Assembly: GCA_030591565.1 (NCBI GenBank)
Contig: JAUVAU010000001.1
Location: 104,577 to 168,576 of the forward strand
Direction: 5' to 3'
Origin: Deltaproteobacteria bacterium
Lineage (GTDB): Bacteria > Desulfobacterota > Deferrisomatia > Deferrisomatales > BM512
Length of the DNA stretch: 64,000 bases
Below are positions 13,757 to 22,766 of the stretch, one piece after another. The notes beneath the pieces were generated by a model that ran no database searches, was not told where the DNA came from, and was given only the letters and a program-made list of their open reading frames with translations. Numbering within the stretch: the stretch's first letter is position 1; each line of letters opens with the position of its first letter. A program made the position numbers and the translations under genes.

Positions 13757-14872
13757 TTATTCCGCAGTTCCCTCGAAGTGCTCCCATTTGCCGTCATCCG
13801 AGGTGCTGATGCCGGAAACCTTGAGGGCAAAATCGTCGGGGTTGGTGGATTGGCGAAGGGCTTCTTTGTAGTCCACGAGCTTTTGGTTGAGCAGCCCCAG
13901 AAGCGACTGGTCGAAGGTCTGCATGCCGTAGGTGGTAAAACCATCGGCGATTGCGCCCCGTATCTCCTTGGTCTTGTCCGGGTTCTCTATGCATTCGCGT
14001 ATGCGAGAAGTAGCCACAAGGACCTCCACCGCCGGCACGCGCCCCTTGCCGTCAGCTTTGGGCACCAGCCGCATGGAGACGATCCCCTTCAGGATCGAGG
14101 CGAGCTGCAAGCGCACCTGTTTTTGCTGGTAGGGAGGAAAGACCGAGATGATGCGGTTGATCGTCTCCGCCGCGTCAACGGTGTGTAGCGTCGAGAGCAC
14201 CAGATGGCCGGTTTCCGCCGCCACCAGTGCGGTCTCGATAGTTTCAAAGTCGCGCATCTCACCCACCAGTATGATGTCGGGATCCTGGCGGAGCGCGCTT
14301 TTCAAGGCTCCTGAGAAGCTGAGCGTGTCAAAGCCGACTTCGCGCTGGTTGACGATCGACTTTTTGTCGCGGTGCAAAAACTCTATGGGGTCTTCAATGG
14401 TGATTATGTGGCAGGTGCGGGTCAGGTTTATATGGTCGATCATCGCCGCCAGCGAGGTGGACTTGCCCGAACCGGTCGTGCCGGTGACGAGAATCAGCCC
14501 GCGGTTCTCGTTGGCCAGTTTTTCGATGACTTTTGGGAGAAAGAGCTCCTTGATGGATTTCACTTCGGTGGGGATTACGCGAAAGACCATCCCTACCGAC
14601 CCGCGCTGCTGGAAGATGTTGAGCCTGAAACGGCCCAGCCCCTTGACGCCGTAGCCCATGTCGATCTCGCGGTTTCGCTCGAAGACATCGCGCTGCTGGG
14701 GCGTCATTATGTCAGTCGCCAATTTGTTCATCGACTCAGGCGTCATCCTGCCCGCCTCTTTGAAGGGCACCAGTTGGCTGTCGCGCCTGAAAATTGGCGG
14801 TACGCCGACCTTGATATGGATGTCAGAGGCGTTCGCCTTAACGGCAGTGTGCAGGATATCGTTGAGTTCCAT
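13757..14872 (-). CDS. pilT: PilT/PilU-family type IV pilus retraction ATPase
   Basis: GTTGSGKST, TIEDPIE, LRQDPD..LVGEMRD, AETGHLV, GMQTFDQ. Confidence 0.92.
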   Translation of the reverse strand: MELNDILHTAVKANASDIHIKVGVPPIFRRDSQLVPFKEAGRMTPESMNKLATDIMTPQQRDVFERNREIDMGYGVKGLGRFRLNIFQQRGSVGMVFRVIPTEVKSIKELFLPKVIEKLANENRGLILVTGTTGSGKSTSLAAMIDHINLTRTCHIITIEDPIEFLHRDKKSIVNQREVGFDTLSFSGALKSALRQDPDIILVGEMRDFETIETALVAAETGHLVLSTLHTVDAAETINRIISVFPPYQQKQVRLQLASILKGIVSMRLVPKADGKGRVPAVEVLVATSRIRECIENPDKTKEIRGAIADGFTTYGMQTFDQSLLGLLNQKLVDYKEALRQSTNPDDFALKVSGISTSDDGKWEHFEGTAE

Positions 14873-14877
14873 TGTTT

Positions 14878-15903
14878 TTATTCCCCGTCTTTGGCGACCT
14901 GTTCGTCTTCGACGATCAAGCCGTACTCTTTTTTGACCTTCTCTTCTATTTCCAGCCGCACTTCATCGTTTTCTATCAGGAAGCGGCGAACATTCTCGCG
15001 CCCCTGTCCGATTCGAGTGTCGCCATAAAGATACCAAGAGCCACGTTTATCAATTATATCCTTATCTACGGCAAGGTCTATCAAATCTCCTTCGCGGCTG
15101 ATTCCGTGGCCGTAGAGGATGTCGAACTCGATCTTGCGAAATGGCGGCGCGACCTTGTTTTTGACGACGGTGACGCGGGTGCGGTTGCCTACCGATTGGT
15201 CCCCGTCTTTCAGCGCGCCGATGCGGCGGATGTCCAGACGCATCGAGGAGTAGAACTTTAGCGCGTTGCCGCCGGTGGTGGTTTCGGGGTTGCCGAACAT
15301 CACCCCGATCTTTATGCGAATCTGGTTAATGAAGATCAGCAAACAGTTGGAGCGGGCTACGGTGCCGGCGAGTTTTCTGAGCGCCTGGCTCATAAGCCGC
15401 GCCTGGAGGCCCACATGACTGTCGCCCATCTCGCCTTCTATCTCGGCGCGTGGTACGAGCGCGGCCACCGAGTCGACTACGATGATGTCCACTGCGCTGC
15501 TTCTCACCAGTAACTCGGTGATCTCCAGCGCCTGTTCGCCAAAGTCGGGCTGGCTGACGAGCAGCTCTTCTATGTCCACGCCCAGTTTCTTGGCGTAGCC
15601 CACGTCCAGCGCGTGTTCGGCATCGACGAAGGCGGCTATGCCGCCGGCCTTCTGGGCCTCGGCTATGGCGTGCAACGCCAGGGTGGTCTTGCCCGATGAT
15701 TCGGGGCCGAAGATCTCGACCACGCGCCCCTTCGGGTAGCCGCCGACTCCCAGGGCCAAGTCCAGCGAGAGGGCTCCGCTGCCTATGGTGTCGAACCCCT
15801 TGGGCGTGCCCCCTTCTCCCAACCGCATTATCGAGCCCTTGCCAAACTGTTTTTCGATCTGGTTTATAGCGAGATCAACCGCGTCGTTGCGTTCCTTGGA
15901 CAT
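14878..15903 (-). CDS. recA: Recombinase RecA
   Basis: [27 protein letters not shown]. Confidence 0.99.
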
Positions 15904-15918
15904 AAACCTTCTCCCGTA

Positions 15919-16476
15919 TCATAAATGAGCGCGCCCCCTCTGGTGATGCTCAGCGCCCTCGGGTTTCAAAAGACTCTCGTATAGTATCACTTCGGCCACC
16001 GTCCAGCTTGGCCCGGTGAGTTTTTTATATTTTTCCACTGTGTTTCCCACGTTCTGGGGTCGCCCGCCGCGAATGAGCCTGCCCAGTGTGAGGTGGGGCC
16101 TGAAGGGCCGATTGTCGCGCCCGATGCCCAATGGCTCCAGTGCGGCTTCAATCTCGAGCGCCAGGCTGACAAGCTGGTCGGTCTCGCCGCCAATCCCCGC
16201 CCATATCACTCGCGCCCGCGCTGGCGTTGGGAAGGCTCCGACCCCCATTGGTTTTAACGTGATCGCCCCACCGTATTCAAAACCGCACGCGAGCCGCTGT
16301 CCGACCTCGTCGAAGAGCTCATGGGATATTTCGCCGATGAACTTGAGCGTCAGGTGGCGCGGTGCGCTGCGCGCAAAGCGGTAATGTTTGAGCGTTGGCC
16401 TGAGCTGCCCGGCCACCTCTTCCAGCCACAGGCTCACCGGCCAGGGTAGCGCTATCGCTATGAAGGCGCGGACCAT
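15919..16476 (-). CDS. thpR: RNA 2',3'-cyclic phosphodiesterase (2H family)
   Basis: RAFIAI start, two HLTL motifs, RARVIWAG; usual position upstream of recA. Confidence 0.9.
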   Translation of the reverse strand: MVRAFIAIALPWPVSLWLEEVAGQLRPTLKHYRFARSAPRHLTLKFIGEISHELFDEVGQRLACGFEYGGAITLKPMGVGAFPTPARARVIWAGIGGETDQLVSLALEIEAALEPLGIGRDNRPFRPHLTLGRLIRGGRPQNVGNTVEKYKKLTGPSWTVAEVILYESLLKPEGAEHHQRGRAHL

Positions 16477-16488
16477 ATCCAACCCGGG

Positions 16489-16998
16489 CTACCTTGCCGC
16501 CGCTTCACAGAGTCTGTCAAGCACGCGAAGCGCCGCTTGCTCTCTTATTTCGCCCCGGTCCCCGGAAAGTTGCAAAAGCTCGGCGTTGCGCGCACGAAAT
16601 GTGCCCCAGGCCACCCATACCGTGCCCACCGGTTTGTCGGGGGTGCCGCCGTCGGGTCCGGCTATCCCGGTAACGGCTGCGCCTACGGTGGCGGAGGTGC
16701 GGGAGAAGAGTCCATCGAGCATCGCCAACGCTATTTCCCGACTCACCGCGCCGTGTTTTTCAAGCAGGTGGGGCTCGACGCCGAGAAGATCGGATTTGGC
16801 GGCGTTGGAGTACGTGACCAAACCGCACTCGAAGTAGGCGGAGCTTCCCGAAACCGAGGTTATCAGCTGGGATATCAGCCCGCCCGTGCACGATTCGGCG
16901 ACGGCCAGCGGTCCCGAACCCCGCTCGGTCATTATGCGTGCGAGCCTGTGTTGCGCCTTGTCGGTCAAGTCCGCGTACCCCGCTTCCGCTTGAATCAA
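16489..16998 (-). CDS. cinA: CinA C-terminal domain protein (PncC-like NMN deamidase)
   Basis: AESCTGG, GSSAYF, TGIAGPDGGTPDKPVG; no N-terminal MocF domain. Confidence 0.9.
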   Translation of the reverse strand: MIQAEAGYADLTDKAQHRLARIMTERGSGPLAVAESCTGGLISQLITSVSGSSAYFECGLVTYSNAAKSDLLGVEPHLLEKHGAVSREIALAMLDGLFSRTSATVGAAVTGIAGPDGGTPDKPVGTVWVAWGTFRARNAELLQLSGDRGEIREQAALRVLDRLCEAAAR

Positions 16999-17447
16999 AG
17001 TGGAATGGCGATAACCAGTAGGGCCAGTCTGGTAAAGATCCCCGCAGCCACGTCGTCGAGGACTATTCCCCAGCCGCCGGATACGTTGCGGTCCAGCCAG
17101 CCCACCGCCCAGGGCTTCAGTATATCAAAGAGGCGGAACAAACAAAATGCGGCGATGTACCAAAGTAGAGATCTCGGTAGCCACAAAACGGCAAAGAGGA
17201 AGCCTATAATTTCATCCAGGACTATCCAGCCGGGGTCTTTTCCCCCATCGATGCGTGCGGCTTGATCGCAGATGAGGGCTGCGGGAACGGTCATTCCGAG
17301 TATGAGCAGGAGGTACAAAGGTGGAGGAAGGTAGCTCAGAAGGAGGGCTATGGGTATGGCGACAAGGGTCCCGGCGGTGCCTGGAGCTACCCGGACGAAG
17401 CCGGAACCAAAACCGCCTGCCACTAGGACGAGGAGTTTGCCGGTCAC
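16995..17447 (-). CDS. pgpA: Phosphatidylglycerophosphatase A
   Basis: APGTAGT, DPGWIVLDE, FRLFDILKP, DDVAAG; start GTG 17447 overlapping upstream stop. Confidence 0.93.
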   Translation of the reverse strand: MTGKLLVLVAGGFGSGFVRVAPGTAGTLVAIPIALLLSYLPPPLYLLLILGMTVPAALICDQAARIDGGKDPGWIVLDEIIGFLFAVLWLPRSLLWYIAAFCLFRLFDILKPWAVGWLDRNVSGGWGIVLDDVAAGIFTRLALLVIAIPL

Positions 17448-18901
17448 GGCATTCCGTTTCGCTCGACCATGCGCAGGAAGGCGTCGACGCATTGGGGATC
17501 AAATTGCGTGCCCGAGCAGCGCTTTAGCTCCATAACTGCCATTTCATGACCCAGCCCCTTGCGGTAGGGGCGGTCCGAGTTCATTGCGTCGTAGGTGTCG
17601 GCGACCTGTATCACCCTGGCGCCCAGGGGAATATCTTCACCCGACAGCCCGTCGGGGTAGCCCTTGCCATCGTAGCGCTCGTGATGGTGGTAGACGATCG
17701 GCACCACGTCTTTCAGGAATGATATCTTCTCCAGAATGCGCCTGCCCATCTGGGAGTGGTTCTTGATTATTTCGTACTCTTCGGGCGAGAGCTTTCCAGC
17801 CTTGTTGAGTATGTTCGACGAGATTCCGATTTTACCGATGTCGTGCAAAAGCCCCGCTTGGCGCAGCGTGTCGATAAAGACACTGGAACAATTCATCTCG
17901 GTGGCGACCGCGACGCACAGGTTGGTCACAGCCTCCGAGTGTCCGTGGGTGTAGACATCCTTGGCCTCGACAGCCATCGCCAGTCCCTGGATCGTTTCCC
18001 TGAACGAGCTCTCCAGGTCAGCGTAGAGCAGCGCGTTCTCCACACTGGAGGCGGCGCGGTCGCCAAGCACTATGAGCGCTTTCTCTTCACGGGGGAGAAA
18101 CTCCCTGTGCTTGGAGCTTGAGTAGGCGTTTAGGACTCCCAATATTTCGCCGCCGCGTTTGAAGGGAACGCTCATCGCCGAGCGCACCACCGGCTTGGCG
18201 GCCTCGTCTATCAGGGAGTCCAGTGCTTTTCCCCGCCATTGTGTAGAGCCGCCGCCAAGTTCGCGTTCAAGGGTGGAGAGGTCGGCAAAGACTTTATCAA
18301 TTTCCGATATGTTGCCCGTGGCGAGCCTTCGGGAGAACTCTTTGGTCCCTGGCGGGCGAAAGAGTATCTCAAGGCCGTCGGCGTCCACTTCTTTTTGGGC
18401 AGCATCGACGAGGATCGAGAGCACTTCATCCAGCGACAGACTCGAAGAGACCGATTCGCTGAGTTTGAGCAGGGTGATCTGCTCGCGAAGTTGGAGGTTT
18501 TCCGAGGAGAGCCGGATTTTTTCGAAAGCGCGTTCGACGACTGTGAGCAGCTCGCCGACCTTGAAGGGCTTCAGGATGTAATCGTAGGCGCCTGACTTGA
18601 GGGCGTTGATCGCCGTCTCCACCGTGGCGTAGCCGGTCATGATGATTATGATCGAGTTCTTGTCAATTTTGCGCAGGGCGCTGAGCATATCCAGCCCGCC
18701 CATTACAGGCATCTTCAAGTCGGTTATCACCACATCGTAGGGGTGCTCTTTGTAGAGCTTCACCCCCTCGCTGCCGTTGGGAGCCGTCTGGGTGGCATAG
18801 CCTTTGCCGCGCAGCACGTCGCTCAAGACGTTGGTGATGTCCTTCTCATCGTCTACGATGAGTATGCGACCGGCTTTTTTTTCTTCGGTGTTCTCTTGCA
18901 T
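17444..18901 (-). CDS. Response regulator with GAF and HD-GYP (c-di-GMP phosphodiesterase) domains
   Basis: ILIVDDE..TDLKMP..KPF receiver; HDIGK and HHERYDGKGYP. Confidence 0.92.
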   Translation of the reverse strand: MQENTEEKKAGRILIVDDEKDITNVLSDVLRGKGYATQTAPNGSEGVKLYKEHPYDVVITDLKMPVMGGLDMLSALRKIDKNSIIIIMTGYATVETAINALKSGAYDYILKPFKVGELLTVVERAFEKIRLSSENLQLREQITLLKLSESVSSSLSLDEVLSILVDAAQKEVDADGLEILFRPPGTKEFSRRLATGNISEIDKVFADLSTLERELGGGSTQWRGKALDSLIDEAAKPVVRSAMSVPFKRGGEILGVLNAYSSSKHREFLPREEKALIVLGDRAASSVENALLYADLESSFRETIQGLAMAVEAKDVYTHGHSEAVTNLCVAVATEMNCSSVFIDTLRQAGLLHDIGKIGISSNILNKAGKLSPEEYEIIKNHSQMGRRILEKISFLKDVVPIVYHHHERYDGKGYPDGLSGEDIPLGARVIQVADTYDAMNSDRPYRKGLGHEMAVMELKRCSGTQFDPQCVDAFLRMVERNGMP

Positions 18902-19198
18902 TTCAAATGGCCTTGAAAAAAGCAAATAGAAAAATAGAATATAAATACAACTCTTCAGAACTTCCCGGAGTATATCACCATATATATTTAATGATCCACA
19001 ATTTGGGCAAAGGATAGGTGAGACTGCAAGATTTTAGGCAACTTTTTGTGGAAGGCCTAATTCACTGCAATGTAGCCAATGTCCGGTGGTGTGAAAAAAG
19101 TATGATCTACTTGTGCACGGTTCAATTTTTTTAGTGCATTTAAGTGGTTATGCGCGCCTTGGATGGCCGACGCAATCGTAATTGTTGGCATGATTGCG

Positions 19199-19363: not shown

Positions 19364-21271
19364 TTGCGCCGTAACGTATTGATTGCAGACACCGATCCGG
19401 TTTTGCGCAACGCCGTGACTGTGGGCCTTGAACCCTACGGTGTGGATATTTTTACCGCTGACAGGGATGGGCAGGCCTACAAATTATTTCTGGAAAAAGG
19501 CCCCTCGCTCGTTATCCTTGACGTGTTGCTGCCAAGGCGTGGCGGCCTGGATTTGCTCAGAAAGATCAAGGCTACCGAGGAGGGCAAGGATCTGCCGGTC
19601 ATCGTGACCTGCCCCATGACCAACTGTTCGGACCTGCGGCGCGAAGCCATGGAAGAGCTGGGTGCGAGCGCTTTTTTTGAAAAGCCGTTGGATTTTGACT
19701 CCATTCGCTCCAGGGTTGAGAAGCTTTTCACCATAAGCGTCCCCTGCGAGACCACTTTTGAAATCGCTTTCATGCCTTACGAGGTACCCGAGAGGGGCGA
19801 GCTGTCGGCCAACCCTTTTCCTGCGCTGCTCCACCATCTTTTGCATCAGGAGTTCACCGGAAGGCTCAACCTCGTCCGGGAACGGGTCAAGAAGATTCTC
19901 TTTCTGGAAAGGGGCAAGGTCGTCTTTGCAACTTCCAACCGGGTGTCGGAAACCCTTGGACGCTCAATGATGGCCGCCGGGGTGATAACCGAGGAGGTGT
20001 ACGGCGAGGCGCTTGAGAAGCTGGGTGAGGGCTCCAAGCGGTTTGGCGAAATTCTCGTTGATATGGGGGTCGCCGACGAGGAGCTGATAAACAAATCGAT
20101 CCGGAACAATATATGCCAAAAGGTTTCCGAGGTCTTCTCCTGGAGCAGCGGGCGCTACGCGATTACGAGAGATGGGGGCCATGAGATGAACGTCATCGAC
20201 CGCTCACTCGAAGGCAGAGAGATCTTTTGGAATGGCGTCATGAAGCACATGTCCATTGGCGAGATACTTGCCGCCATGCGCCCCAAGATGGACTCCTATA
20301 TAGCGGTGAAGCGCAACCCTGAAAAGCTCTGCGAAGACATGGAGCTTAACGGCGGGACATTCCCCTTCCTGCGCCGCGCCCAGGAATTTCCCGGTAATAA
20401 GCTTGAAGACGCGCTTGTGCTGGCAAAGGGCGAGCGCGAGGTGCGCACCCTGTTTGCGCTATTGATAATGGAGTACTTCGCGTTTAGCTCCAACCAAGAG
20501 TGCCGCGTGTTGGGTGATGGCGAGGATGTGGAGTTGCTCCAGCGTTTCTATGCGCACGCGGAGTACCTGCGGGAGCTCAAGGGGAGAAACCTTTTCAGGG
20601 TGCTTGGCGTGCCGCTGGACGCCAGCGATGAGGTAGTTCACACCGCCTATCTGGAAAGGGCGAGGGAGTACCATCCCGATACCGCCGTCGCCGAGGATAG
20701 CGACCAGATAAAGCAGGTGCTGAGCGAAATATTCGTCATCATCAAAAAGGCCTATGACTCCATCAAGGACTGTGACGATCGAAAGAAGTATCTGAAGAGA
20801 CTCCAGGAGCCGTTGGAAAACGAGCGGATGGAGGGTGCGATAATCATTGAGGCTGAGACCAAATTCCAGCAGGGCATGGTAGCCATGAAAAGGCGCAACT
20901 TGGCCGAAGCGCTGCCGCTCTTTCAGGCTGCATATGGTCTCCATTCCGATGAGAGCGACTATGCGCTGTATTGCGGTATAGCGATGATGTACCTGAATGA
21001 AGGCGACCCTGTGCAGATCTTCGAGGAAGCCAGGAAGATGTTTATGATCGCCGCTGATCTGGACCGCGCGGCCCCCGAGCCCTACTACCGGCTGGGGTTG
21101 CTTTACAAGCGTGAGCGGAAGATGGACAAGGCCAAGGCATACTTCCAGCGGGCCATGGTGCGAGACCCCGGCCACATAGAGTCCAAGCGTGAGGTGAGGC
21201 TCATGAATGTGCGTCAGCAGGGTTTGCCGAGAAAATCGATGTTTGGTTCCCTGATGGGAAAGAAAAGGTGA
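19364..21271 (+). CDS. Receiver + DUF4388-like + DnaJ (J) + TPR multidomain protein
   Basis: Receiver ILDVLLP/FEKP; FPALLHHL..FTGRL..LG..L DUF4388/GspE-N-like region; J domain VLGV...YHPD; C-terminal TPR helices; GGAGG RBS before TTG. Confidence 0.8.
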   Translation: MRRNVLIADTDPVLRNAVTVGLEPYGVDIFTADRDGQAYKLFLEKGPSLVILDVLLPRRGGLDLLRKIKATEEGKDLPVIVTCPMTNCSDLRREAMEELGASAFFEKPLDFDSIRSRVEKLFTISVPCETTFEIAFMPYEVPERGELSANPFPALLHHLLHQEFTGRLNLVRERVKKILFLERGKVVFATSNRVSETLGRSMMAAGVITEEVYGEALEKLGEGSKRFGEILVDMGVADEELINKSIRNNICQKVSEVFSWSSGRYAITRDGGHEMNVIDRSLEGREIFWNGVMKHMSIGEILAAMRPKMDSYIAVKRNPEKLCEDMELNGGTFPFLRRAQEFPGNKLEDALVLAKGEREVRTLFALLIMEYFAFSSNQECRVLGDGEDVELLQRFYAHAEYLRELKGRNLFRVLGVPLDASDEVVHTAYLERAREYHPDTAVAEDSDQIKQVLSEIFVIIKKAYDSIKDCDDRKKYLKRLQEPLENERMEGAIIIEAETKFQQGMVAMKRRNLAEALPLFQAAYGLHSDESDYALYCGIAMMYLNEGDPVQIFEEARKMFMIAADLDRAAPEPYYRLGLLYKRERKMDKAKAYFQRAMVRDPGHIESKREVRLMNVRQQGLPRKSMFGSLMGKKR

Positions 21272-21275
21272 GCGA

Positions 21276-22766
21276 TTGAGAATTATTGCAGCAATTTTGA
21301 TTGTTTTGGCGTCGACGGGGGCATGGGCCCAGGCGCCTGGATATCGTTTGGTTTATGGTTCCTCCATCCTCGGCGAAGTTTTCCCCTGTGGCTGAAAATC
21401 CGGCAAACTCGGGGGTCTCGCCCGTAGAACGACAAAAGTAAAGGAACTGTCTGCCCAGGGAGTGCCCGCCATCTACCTTGATGGAGGAGGCGCCCTTTTC
21501 AAGTCGCCCGTGGTGGTTGACGAACGGGCACGCAACTCTGCCATTGTCGGAAACGCCCGCTTTATAGGCGAAGCCCTCGCAGCCCTGAATCTGGAAGCGA
21601 TCAACGTGGGCAGGATGGACCTGCCCGGTGGGTTGGAGTTTCTGCAAGAACTCATCAAAGACACCGGCATCAAGTACGTCTCCGCCAACATCCGGCTCAG
21701 TGATGGTAGCGCCCCCTTCGACGCCTACAAGGTGTTCGACTGGGGCGGCGCGCGGGTGGCCGCTTTCGGGCTGACCTTTGCCCGCCCCAGGGAAGACCTC
21801 AAGCTCGGCATACAGGTCCTTGACCCCTATGAGACCGCCAGGGAGGTAGTCGCTTCGCTCTCCGACGTGGACTTCGTGATCTGTCTCACCGACATCGGCT
21901 ACGATGGTGACCACAAGCTGGCGAAAGAGGTGGAAGGCATAGGGTTGATAATTGGCGGCGGCATGGGCTCACGCCTGATGCGTAGTCCCTTGAAGATCAA
22001 CGATACGTTGATCTTGAGGTGCGCTGACAGGGGCAGGCACATTGGTGTGCTGGACATAAAAGAGACCAAGCTCTCCGAGTGGAAAGAGCCGGAAGATGAG
22101 CAGCGCAGGGCCAGGGGCGCCGCCACGCTTGATCTCTTCAAGGAGCAGCTGCCCCAGAAAGCGCTGCGCGACACGGTGGACAAGCTGAAGACCAGGTTGG
22201 AGGAAAATGAGGGGGGAGCCAGCGTATACTCCCACGAGATAATTTTTCTCACCACCGCAGTCAAGGCCGATCCCCAAGTCCAGGAAAAAATGGAGAAATT
22301 GAAAGCAATCAACAGGGGACGGGTCAGCCGTGCGCCACCGCCGCCCCGAAAGCTTCAGCCGCAGAGAGGCCCTGTCCGGCAGCAACCCAACCGCCCGCCT
22401 CCGCCAAAAAGCGGGAACACGGGCACGATGCGTTGTCGCTCCTGTCACGTGGAGCAGTTCTTCTCCTGGCAAGGGACCTCACATTCGCGCTCGATCAGCT
22501 CCCTTTCAGGTGGAGAGCGTAGGGACGAAGAGTGTTTGCAGTGCCACGCCAACTATCTTCAGATAAACACCAAGCGGGTCAAAGAGCCGCTGGTGGGTTG
22601 CGAAGCGTGCCACGGCGAGGGTGGCGGACACCCCGGAGCCGGGTCAAAGATTGTGCGTAGGGTTGAGCAGGCTAAATGCAAGAAGTGCCACAGGGGCTAC
22701 CACGAGGGTGAAGAGACTTTCGATTATATGAAAAAGCTGGAGTTGATCCGCTGTAACAGACTCTAG
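21276..22766 (+). CDS. Probable selenoprotein: exported UshA-like (C-G-U) domain fused to a c554-like tetraheme cytochrome c
   Basis: TTG 21276 opens signal peptide MRIIAAILIVLASTGAWA; in-frame TGA at 21393-95 in EVFPCG*KSGKLGGLARR; same frame as ORF 21462-22766; four CxxCH (CRSCH, CLQCH, CEACH, CKKCH). Confidence 0.85.
21410..21424 (+). promoter_or_regulatory. SECIS-like hairpin
   Basis: CGGG-GGTCTCG-CCCG starting 15 nt after the UGA, loop containing GGUC as in the E. coli fdhF SECIS apex. Confidence 0.6.

Follow-up and report, generated by a model that had tools for sequence, protein, structure and literature searches.

Selenoproteins that resemble the 5'-nucleotidase UshA were reported in an ocean-sampling selenoproteome as a family labelled "COG0737, UshA-like", with a CxU motif and 76 sequences, and were described there as homologues of 5'-nucleotidase-like esterases and, among the families, as one of a small number that lack a Cys-based redox motif (PMC2398784). 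Two reviews list the same UshA-like CxU family again (PMC9312934, PMC13188914). The passages of these three papers that treat the family mention neither haem motifs nor a loss of metal ligands. In the literature searched, represented for this family by those passages, no function for it was found, as a first-pass annotation of the DNA considered here had stated, and nothing was found on a combination of metallophosphoesterase, multiple haems and selenocysteine. Here we describe such a combination in a gene at positions 21276-22766 of a 64,000-nucleotide stretch of a Deltaproteobacteria bacterium genome (contig JAUVAU010000001.1, the whole stretch being termed the window), which encodes a predicted exported protein that joins a UshA-like domain with a Cys-Gly-selenocysteine (Sec) motif to a tetrahaem cytochrome c.

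The closest catalogued family is NCBIfam NF041198, "UshA-like (seleno)protein" (UshA_like_PCGU), with the hallmark P-C-G-U/C followed by GGxA[RK][RK] and a two-part architecture in which a UshA-like part leads into a C-terminal multihaem part. The window protein carries the motif, as FPCGUKSGKLGGLARR, and both parts. Its score of 272.9 bits falls 2.1 bits short of the cut-off of 275, with residues 7-292 covering model positions 8-296, and the last 155 residues taken alone match positions 400-518 with 71.4 bits. As the model itself spans the cytochrome part, the fusion is the family's normal build and no novelty of the window gene. Orthologues of the window gene score 242.5-288.5 bits, with 2 of 13 at or above 275; members of the basal and paralogue clades score 335-568 bits (7/7), and forms with Cys in place of Sec 230.8-371.9 bits (2/4). 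The product is thus a borderline member of a catalogued, functionally uncharacterised family and not a new kind of protein. The first-pass description of an uncharacterised system, in the sense of an undescribed one, has to be given up, as NF041198 spans both domains and at least 150 cluster representatives, drawn from several phyla, have the same architecture. The P-C-G-U/C motif and the two-domain build are shared with the family at large; the window clade, meaning the gene and its orthologues, differs in Arg113, a long Pro/Arg linker, His476 (read from the alignment) and its gene neighbours.

This position has a consequence for annotation. Because the window clade scores slightly below the threshold of the one model that recognises the family, its genes are called as N-terminally truncated "multiheme c-type cytochromes" without signal peptide or Sec site. 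That the clade straddles the cut-off fits the annotation of the Deferrisoma camini cluster representative WP_025323997.1 as a truncated protein, a 404-aa "multiheme c-type cytochrome" that matches the family profile only from position 93. A second catalogued family, the ExtKL multihaem c-type cytochrome (seleno)protein NF040886, likewise joins c-type haems with selenocysteine, but it lacks the UshA-like domain and carries Sec in another context. Its match to the haem domain described here is weak (E 0.0032 with the whole protein, 1.5e-4 with the domain alone), and at 16-20 bits against a cut-off of 250 the window protein is no member.

Gene model and selenocysteine decoding

The table 11 open reading frame, on the + strand like all features of the gene given below, starts at GTG 21462 and yields 434 aa without a signal peptide. 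This start is doubtful, because the short form would be a c-type cytochrome, with four CxxCH motifs, that has no export signal. The frame from TTG 21276 to the TAG at 22764-22766 is interrupted solely by TGA 21393-21395, and reading that codon as Sec gives a coding sequence (21276-22766) of 496 residues plus TAG, which contains GEVFPCGUKSGKLGGLARR and the four CxxCH motifs CRSCH, CLQCH, CEACH and CKKCH at residues 387, 420, 442 and 468. An in-frame stop lies at 21252-21254, and the next start codon is TTG 21276, which begins 4 nt past the stop of the upstream gene and is closely preceded by AAGGTGAG. A probable ribosome-binding site at 21264-21272 (AAAGGTGAG), proposed from a consensus match only, overlaps the TGA stop of the upstream gene at 21269-21271. 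The N-terminus is hydrophobic, and from the translation a signal peptide of residues 1-18 (21276-21329) is predicted, with likely cleavage after AWA at the junction of AWA and QA. A lipoprotein signal was considered and rejected, as the signal peptide holds no Cys.

Conservation around the TGA argues strongly that it is a sense codon. Of 41 genomes searched in six frames, the window's own and 40 relatives, 34 gave matches. Among the 20 best homologous places in related genomes, 19 carry one in-frame TGA, and the twentieth, at a contig end, begins at query residue 50. Assembly of complete genes yielded 29 Sec forms, the window's own included, and in every one a hydrophobic N-terminus comes first, the TGA lies within P-C-[GA]-U, and four CxxCH motifs come after it. 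The 39 codons 5' of the TGA are conserved as coding across these 29 genes (24-40% identity), comprising the signal peptide and the pattern Y-x-x-x-x-x-G-E-x-x-P-C-G; a TGA with coding conservation on both flanks is far above chance. Across 36 aligned homologues, which share 21-40% identity with the window protein, the columns of Cys38, Gly39 and residue 40 do not vary, the last being TGA in 29 and Cys in 7. The pairing of Cys and TGA at codon 40 that the first-pass annotation had anticipated is thus found in every aligned homologue.

Sequencing error at the TGA is rejected, since the codon is kept in the homologous places and in an independent contig. This contig, from public run X3, covers 21200-21500 with 15 differences in 301 bases, none of them at 21393-21395, and the differences include a synonymous TGT-to-TGC change in the Cys38 codon. 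The run is an independent sediment metagenome that holds a closely related strain, with ~95% identity over the 301 covered bases. In one metatranscriptome (X7) nothing mapped onto the gene stretch.

The machinery on which a selenoprotein depends is encoded in the genome for the most part. SelB (320.7 bits) lies on the window's own contig, SelD (355 bits) carries a Sec within its own active-site motif ...AAGUAAK..., and a tRNA-Sec (76 bits) has the anticodon TCA; the part of the expected set that did not materialise is SelA. Comparative sequence evidence taken together indicates that UGA codon 40 is read as selenocysteine and that the product is an exported Sec protein, and we hold its identity as a UshA-like selenoprotein-cytochrome with high confidence. 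The first-pass proposal of a selenoprotein hidden by the reading-frame call, with an exported C-G-U UshA-like domain and a tetrahaem cytochrome, is upheld by the 496-aa reading, the signal peptide, the four CxxCH motifs and the conserved TGA. Of the three findings that it named as refutations, none was obtained: Sec machinery other than SelA is encoded, no aligned homologue has a residue other than Cys or Sec at the column, and independent reads retain the TGA.

A GGUC-loop hairpin claimed for 21410-21424 is also present. It reads CGGG-GGUCUCG-CCCG and, with a bulged U, reaches 21408-21427 (CUCGGG-GGUCUCG-CCCG(U)AG), giving a 6-bp stem with the apical loop GGUCUCG 12 nt past the UGA. A GGUC apical loop is also found in the selenocysteine insertion sequence (SECIS) of Escherichia coli fdhF. 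A hairpin enclosing GGUC can be drawn at 32/32 homologous sites, and 30 of them use GGT for the Gly of the loop, a codon that accounts for only 2-24% of Gly codons in the genes concerned. The hairpin overlaps the conserved peptide GGLA[RK][RK], and an Rfam scan of 21200-21600 at E <=10 returned two chance snoRNA-like matches and no SECIS family.

Against Sec decoding stand the missing SelA and the statistics of this hairpin. SelA was not found in the genome with TIGR00474, PF03841 or a tblastn search using SelA from the same family, and it is present in 12/12 relatives searched. Given an assembly that is 91.5% complete and in 104 contigs, the absence probably reflects a gap in the assembly. 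For the 66-nt region, folding stability does not exceed that of dinucleotide shuffles (z +0.89). Set against synonymous recodings, the hairpin has a median rank of 0.24, falls at or below 0.05 at only 4/32 sites and ranks 0.41 in the window, and unconstrained folding has a median rank of 0.58. A codon-fixed alignment gave convincing covariation in no single register; pairing registers shift by 1-2 bases between clades, which leaves the fixed-column pair counts mixed. The putative element is therefore compatible with a SECIS but statistically inseparable from coding constraint, and provides no independent proof.

A nucleotidase fold with a lost metal site and a tetrahaem tail

The N-terminal domain (residues 22-292; 21339-22151) is predicted to have the metallophosphatase fold of 5'-nucleotidase N-domains, as indicated by the match to NF041198 positions 8-296, by structure comparison and by the confidence of the model. 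AlphaFold run on the alignment gave a mean predicted local distance difference test (pLDDT) score of 84.4 and a predicted template modelling score of 0.72, with pLDDT mostly >90 in the N-domain and about 60-83 in the haem domain. Foldseek matched the N-domain to the 5'-nucleotidases 3ivd, 2z1a, CD73 and 2ush (E 8e-19, 16-20% identity), and a profile comparison with Thermus 2z1a gave E 9e-31. Neither Pfam Metallophos nor the 5'-nucleotidase C-terminal domain (PF02872) was matched, the region of the latter being occupied by linker and cytochrome.

Of the metal and catalytic motif set of the UshA type, D-x-H, G-D, G-N-H-E/D, H and G-H, all seven positions are replaced in the window protein. The canonical D and H of motif I are Ser30 and Leu32, the D of motif II is Gly72, the N and H of motif III are Arg113 and Met114, and the His residues of motifs IV and V are Asp206 and Gly229. 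The degenerate ligands noted in the first-pass annotation are accordingly confirmed by alignment to 2z1a, in which LDGGG takes the place of LDAGD, GRMD of GNHE, LTD of LSH and GGG of GGH; the Pro/Arg-rich linker it described is likewise present, at about residues 352-381. The N and H of GNHE are kept in 0/36 homologues. Among the same 36, the next acidic residue, Asp115, is invariant, as are Gly46-Gly47 and Gly71, and Arg113 is invariant in the window clade. Ligand loss looks stepwise from the alignment, because the motif-V His is kept in two basal members (L038, L040) and the motif-IV His in L040 and four Cys forms.

In the alignment to 2z1a, the P-C-G-U loop comes six residues past the motif-I His and so sits over the former metal site. 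The codons of Cys38-Gly39-Sec40 (TGT GGC TGA, 21387-21395), invariant columns in 36/36 homologues, are the proposed active site. Compared with UshA and 2z1a, the window protein shares the N-domain fold and a conserved GGxAR helix, but its dimetal ligands are gone, a cytochrome replaces the C-domain and a Cys-Gly-Sec loop is inserted past motif I. The best-scoring characterised NCBIfam family for the N-domain is the SoxB thiosulfohydrolase (TIGR04486; structures 2wdc and 4uwq; profile E about 7e-22), at 61.7 bits and far under its cut-off of 550, and UshA scores 24.7 bits. SoxB is a dimanganese hydrolase. It carries out periplasmic sulfur chemistry on the same fold, but without haems or Sec.

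A helical connector (residues 293-351; 22152-22328), present in the window clade but not in the shorter paralogue clade, is followed by the flexible Pro/Arg-rich linker (residues 352-381; 22329-22418), in which residues 366-375 form the only stretch of the model with pLDDT <50. The remainder of the protein (residues 382-496; 22419-22763) is a cytochrome c554-like tetrahaem domain, matched by PF13435 (33.2 bits, cut-off 20.8), by NF041198 positions 400-518 and by PDB profiles of cytochrome c554 (1bvb, 7e-20) and of an uncharacterised multihaem protein (6i5b, 9e-31). Its CxxCH motifs lie at 22434-22448 (C387-H391, invariant in the homologue alignment), 22533-22547 (C420-H424), 22599-22613 (C442-H446) and 22677-22691 (C468-H472), the last three read from the sequence and the homologue alignment. 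The four motifs are arranged as in the cytochrome c554 family (PF13435; 1bvb, 1ft5); unlike c554, the cytochrome here forms the C-terminal part of a larger, enzyme-like protein, and its tail varies between Cys and His with the Sec/Cys state of the N-domain.

This variation was seen in two sets. In the DNA-checked set, a Cys lies in the last 16 residues of 29/29 Sec forms (Cys493 in the window protein, codon 22752-22754) and of 0/7 Cys forms, most of which have a His instead, in GPGH-like tails. Among the best 150 database representatives, where "presumed Sec" means lacking a CxC motif, the last 16 residues hold a Cys in 56/77 presumed Sec forms and 9/73 Cys forms, and a His with no Cys in 17/77 and 47/73, respectively; the Fisher p of 2e-14 for this split is inflated by kinship. 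The swap follows the pattern that would be expected of a haem or metal ligand, confounded by shared ancestry.

Proposed activity and competing explanations

Our best explanation of the whole is a Sec protein that combines a metal-less nucleotidase/SoxB-type fold with a c554-like domain and acts as a periplasmic oxidoreductase rather than as a phosphoesterase, and on balance we consider this probable. The narrower proposal, already made in the first-pass annotation, that the Cys/Sec redox site is wired to the haems is drawn from anatomy only, and we regard it as plausible but evenly balanced. In the model, the protein would be exported unfolded via the Sec export pathway and receive its haems in the periplasm, where the four haems and the Cys/Sec centre would exchange electrons. 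Sec40 would attack a small periplasmic substrate, Cys38 would resolve the adduct as a selenenylsulfide, and the haems would then re-reduce the pair. Asp115 is a likely acid/base, and Arg113 may bind an anion. The substrate might be a tetrahedral oxyanion of S, Se or As, or a polysulfide, a guess prompted by the ancestry of the fold, whose nucleotidase and SoxB members bind oxyanions. The quinol pool, reached through membrane multihaem cytochromes, would be the likely electron source; genes for such cytochromes adjoin the paralogue described below and not the window gene.

Two features sit uneasily with a wired oxidoreductase. The linker is flexible, so that the two domains need not dock, and the genes next to the window gene encode regulators and a cytidylyltransferase rather than redox proteins.

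In its boldest form the proposal extends to an unrecognised class of periplasmic oxidoreductases, in which Cys-Gly-Sec has replaced the dimetal centre, a c554-like tetrahaem wire feeds it, and the tail Cys/His, as ligand of one haem, adjusts or gates the flow of electrons; such an enzyme would reduce or oxidise inorganic S, Se or As species in anoxic sediments. We put this forward tentatively and with more doubt than belief. The combination of a hydrolase fold that lacks its metal with a Cys/Sec centre joined to four haems points to undescribed chemistry in a very widespread two-domain protein of unassigned function, and the cultured relative Deferrisoma camini makes the question testable.

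The main rival view is that the motif is a ligand. Cys38 and Sec40 could hold a metal (Cu, Ni, Fe or Zn) that replaces the dimetal site, or Cys38, Sec40 or Cys493 could ligate a haem iron, with catalysis or sensing taking place there. The motif does occupy the former place of the metal ligands, the invariant candidates for distal ligands number only two (H403 and H452) for four haems, and the Cys/His alternation of the tail has the look of a ligand swap. However, C-x-U and C-x-C are classic redox couples, H476 could, by eye, serve as another distal ligand in proteins of the window clade, and shared ancestry confounds the tail correlation. We judge a ligand role unlikely, though worth keeping in mind.

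An improbable alternative is that the protein is no enzyme but an electron carrier or redox sensor, its tetrahaem domain shuttling electrons and the Cys/Sec state of its N-domain reporting periplasmic redox or sulfide. This would suit the setting of the gene, which starts 4 nt past an upstream gene (19364-21271, + strand) for a response-regulator receiver/DUF4388/DnaJ/TPR protein and lies near a response-regulator/GAF/HD gene, in a conserved arrangement with no adjacent catalytic partner gene. The regulators are cytoplasmic, though, and the link may be plain synteny; the upstream gene recurs in only 9/20 loci searched. In addition, the choice of Sec over Cys usually marks a catalytic nucleophile, and the invariant Asp115, Gly46-Gly47 and Gly71 point to a shaped active site.

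That the protein is still a phosphoesterase or SoxB-like hydrolase, with haems that serve another purpose, is very improbable. The 5'-nucleotidase fold, the remote similarity to SoxB and UshA and the His residues of motifs IV and V kept in L038, L040 and four Cys forms speak for it. In the window protein all seven metal or catalytic positions are replaced, no Metallophos or 5'-nucleotidase C-terminal domain is detected, and a cytochrome stands where the substrate-binding C-domain would be. Finally, a TGA that is a true stop, leaving a 434-aa cytochrome from GTG 21462 or a decaying gene, would agree with the short forms yielded by gene callers, as in Deferrisoma camini WP_025323997.1, and with the failure to find SelA in the assembly, but is scarcely credible for a four-CxxCH protein that would lack a signal peptide, whose 39 upstream codons are conserved as coding in 29 genes, whose other homologues carry Cys in place of the TGA and whose genome encodes a SelD that itself requires Sec decoding.

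Distribution, paralogue and gene neighbourhood

A profile of 36 sequences searched against 1.84 billion cluster representatives gave 40,295 matches at E <=0.001, 22,668 at E <=1e-10 and 6,162 at E <=1e-30. The best 150 all have haem motifs, with four CxxCH in 142, three in 7 and five in 1. Of these 150, 73 show CxC...GG and so count as Cys forms, and the other 77 lack it. Among the 77, 31 start exactly at the GG of the GGL motif, as would be expected where a gene caller stops at the TGA. Atlas look-alikes of a database Cys form (P0021) bear the labels Thermodesulfobacteriota, Acidobacteriota, Planctomycetota, Verrucomicrobiota and Bdellovibrionota, and most of their clusters are named hypothetical or cytochrome c554.

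The window's genome holds a paralogue on another contig (C91; L041:1520-2926, + strand), a 469-aa protein with PCGU and four CxxCH motifs that scores 357.2 bits against NF041198. It lies between a divergent NapC/NirT-type multihaem gene and a multihaem gene with a membrane part; the product of the latter (L072) matches multihaem families only, and a membrane part was recognised by eye in its translation. Seven paralogue loci were examined, of which two (L068, L069) had crude and unreliable open reading frame calls; in 5 of the seven, a divergent NapC/NirT-type multihaem gene (about 745 aa) adjoins the NF041198 paralogue. A multihaem protein with a cytochrome b561-type part adjoins the paralogue in L067 and also the basal member L037. 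Multihaem neighbours of the NapC/NirT and b561 types are typical quinol-linked electron-transfer partners. A single-protein search of the genome contigs returned one weak and irrelevant locus (L042).

Around the window gene itself, the short distance to the upstream regulator gene suggests that the two may be co-transcribed. Downstream lies a cytidylyltransferase gene convergent with the window gene. Of the 20 related loci searched, 9 have the upstream gene and 12 the downstream one, and in three same-family relatives that lack the upstream gene a response-regulator/GAF/HD gene takes its place. These neighbours give no hint of a substrate, and a functional tie to the upstream gene is not apparent. 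Further upstream, 13757-18925 encodes a PilT-like ATPase, recA, a LigT-like phosphoesterase and a response-regulator/GAF/HD protein, with alaS beyond them; the block is conserved housekeeping and regulatory DNA rather than a redox island.

Variants of the build were also seen. Shorter UshA-like Sec genes with P-C-[GAV]-U and no in-frame CxxCH occur in three relatives (L056 in G034, L057:488-541 in G035 and L062 in G032), so the Sec domain also occurs without a cytochrome; these are possibly split or stand-alone forms. At the other extreme, three proteins of about 1,190-1,210 aa (P0018, P0025 and P0040) contain three or four stretches that match the family profile, with C-[ED]-C instead of C-G-C, and could be family members of tandem or multi-domain build.

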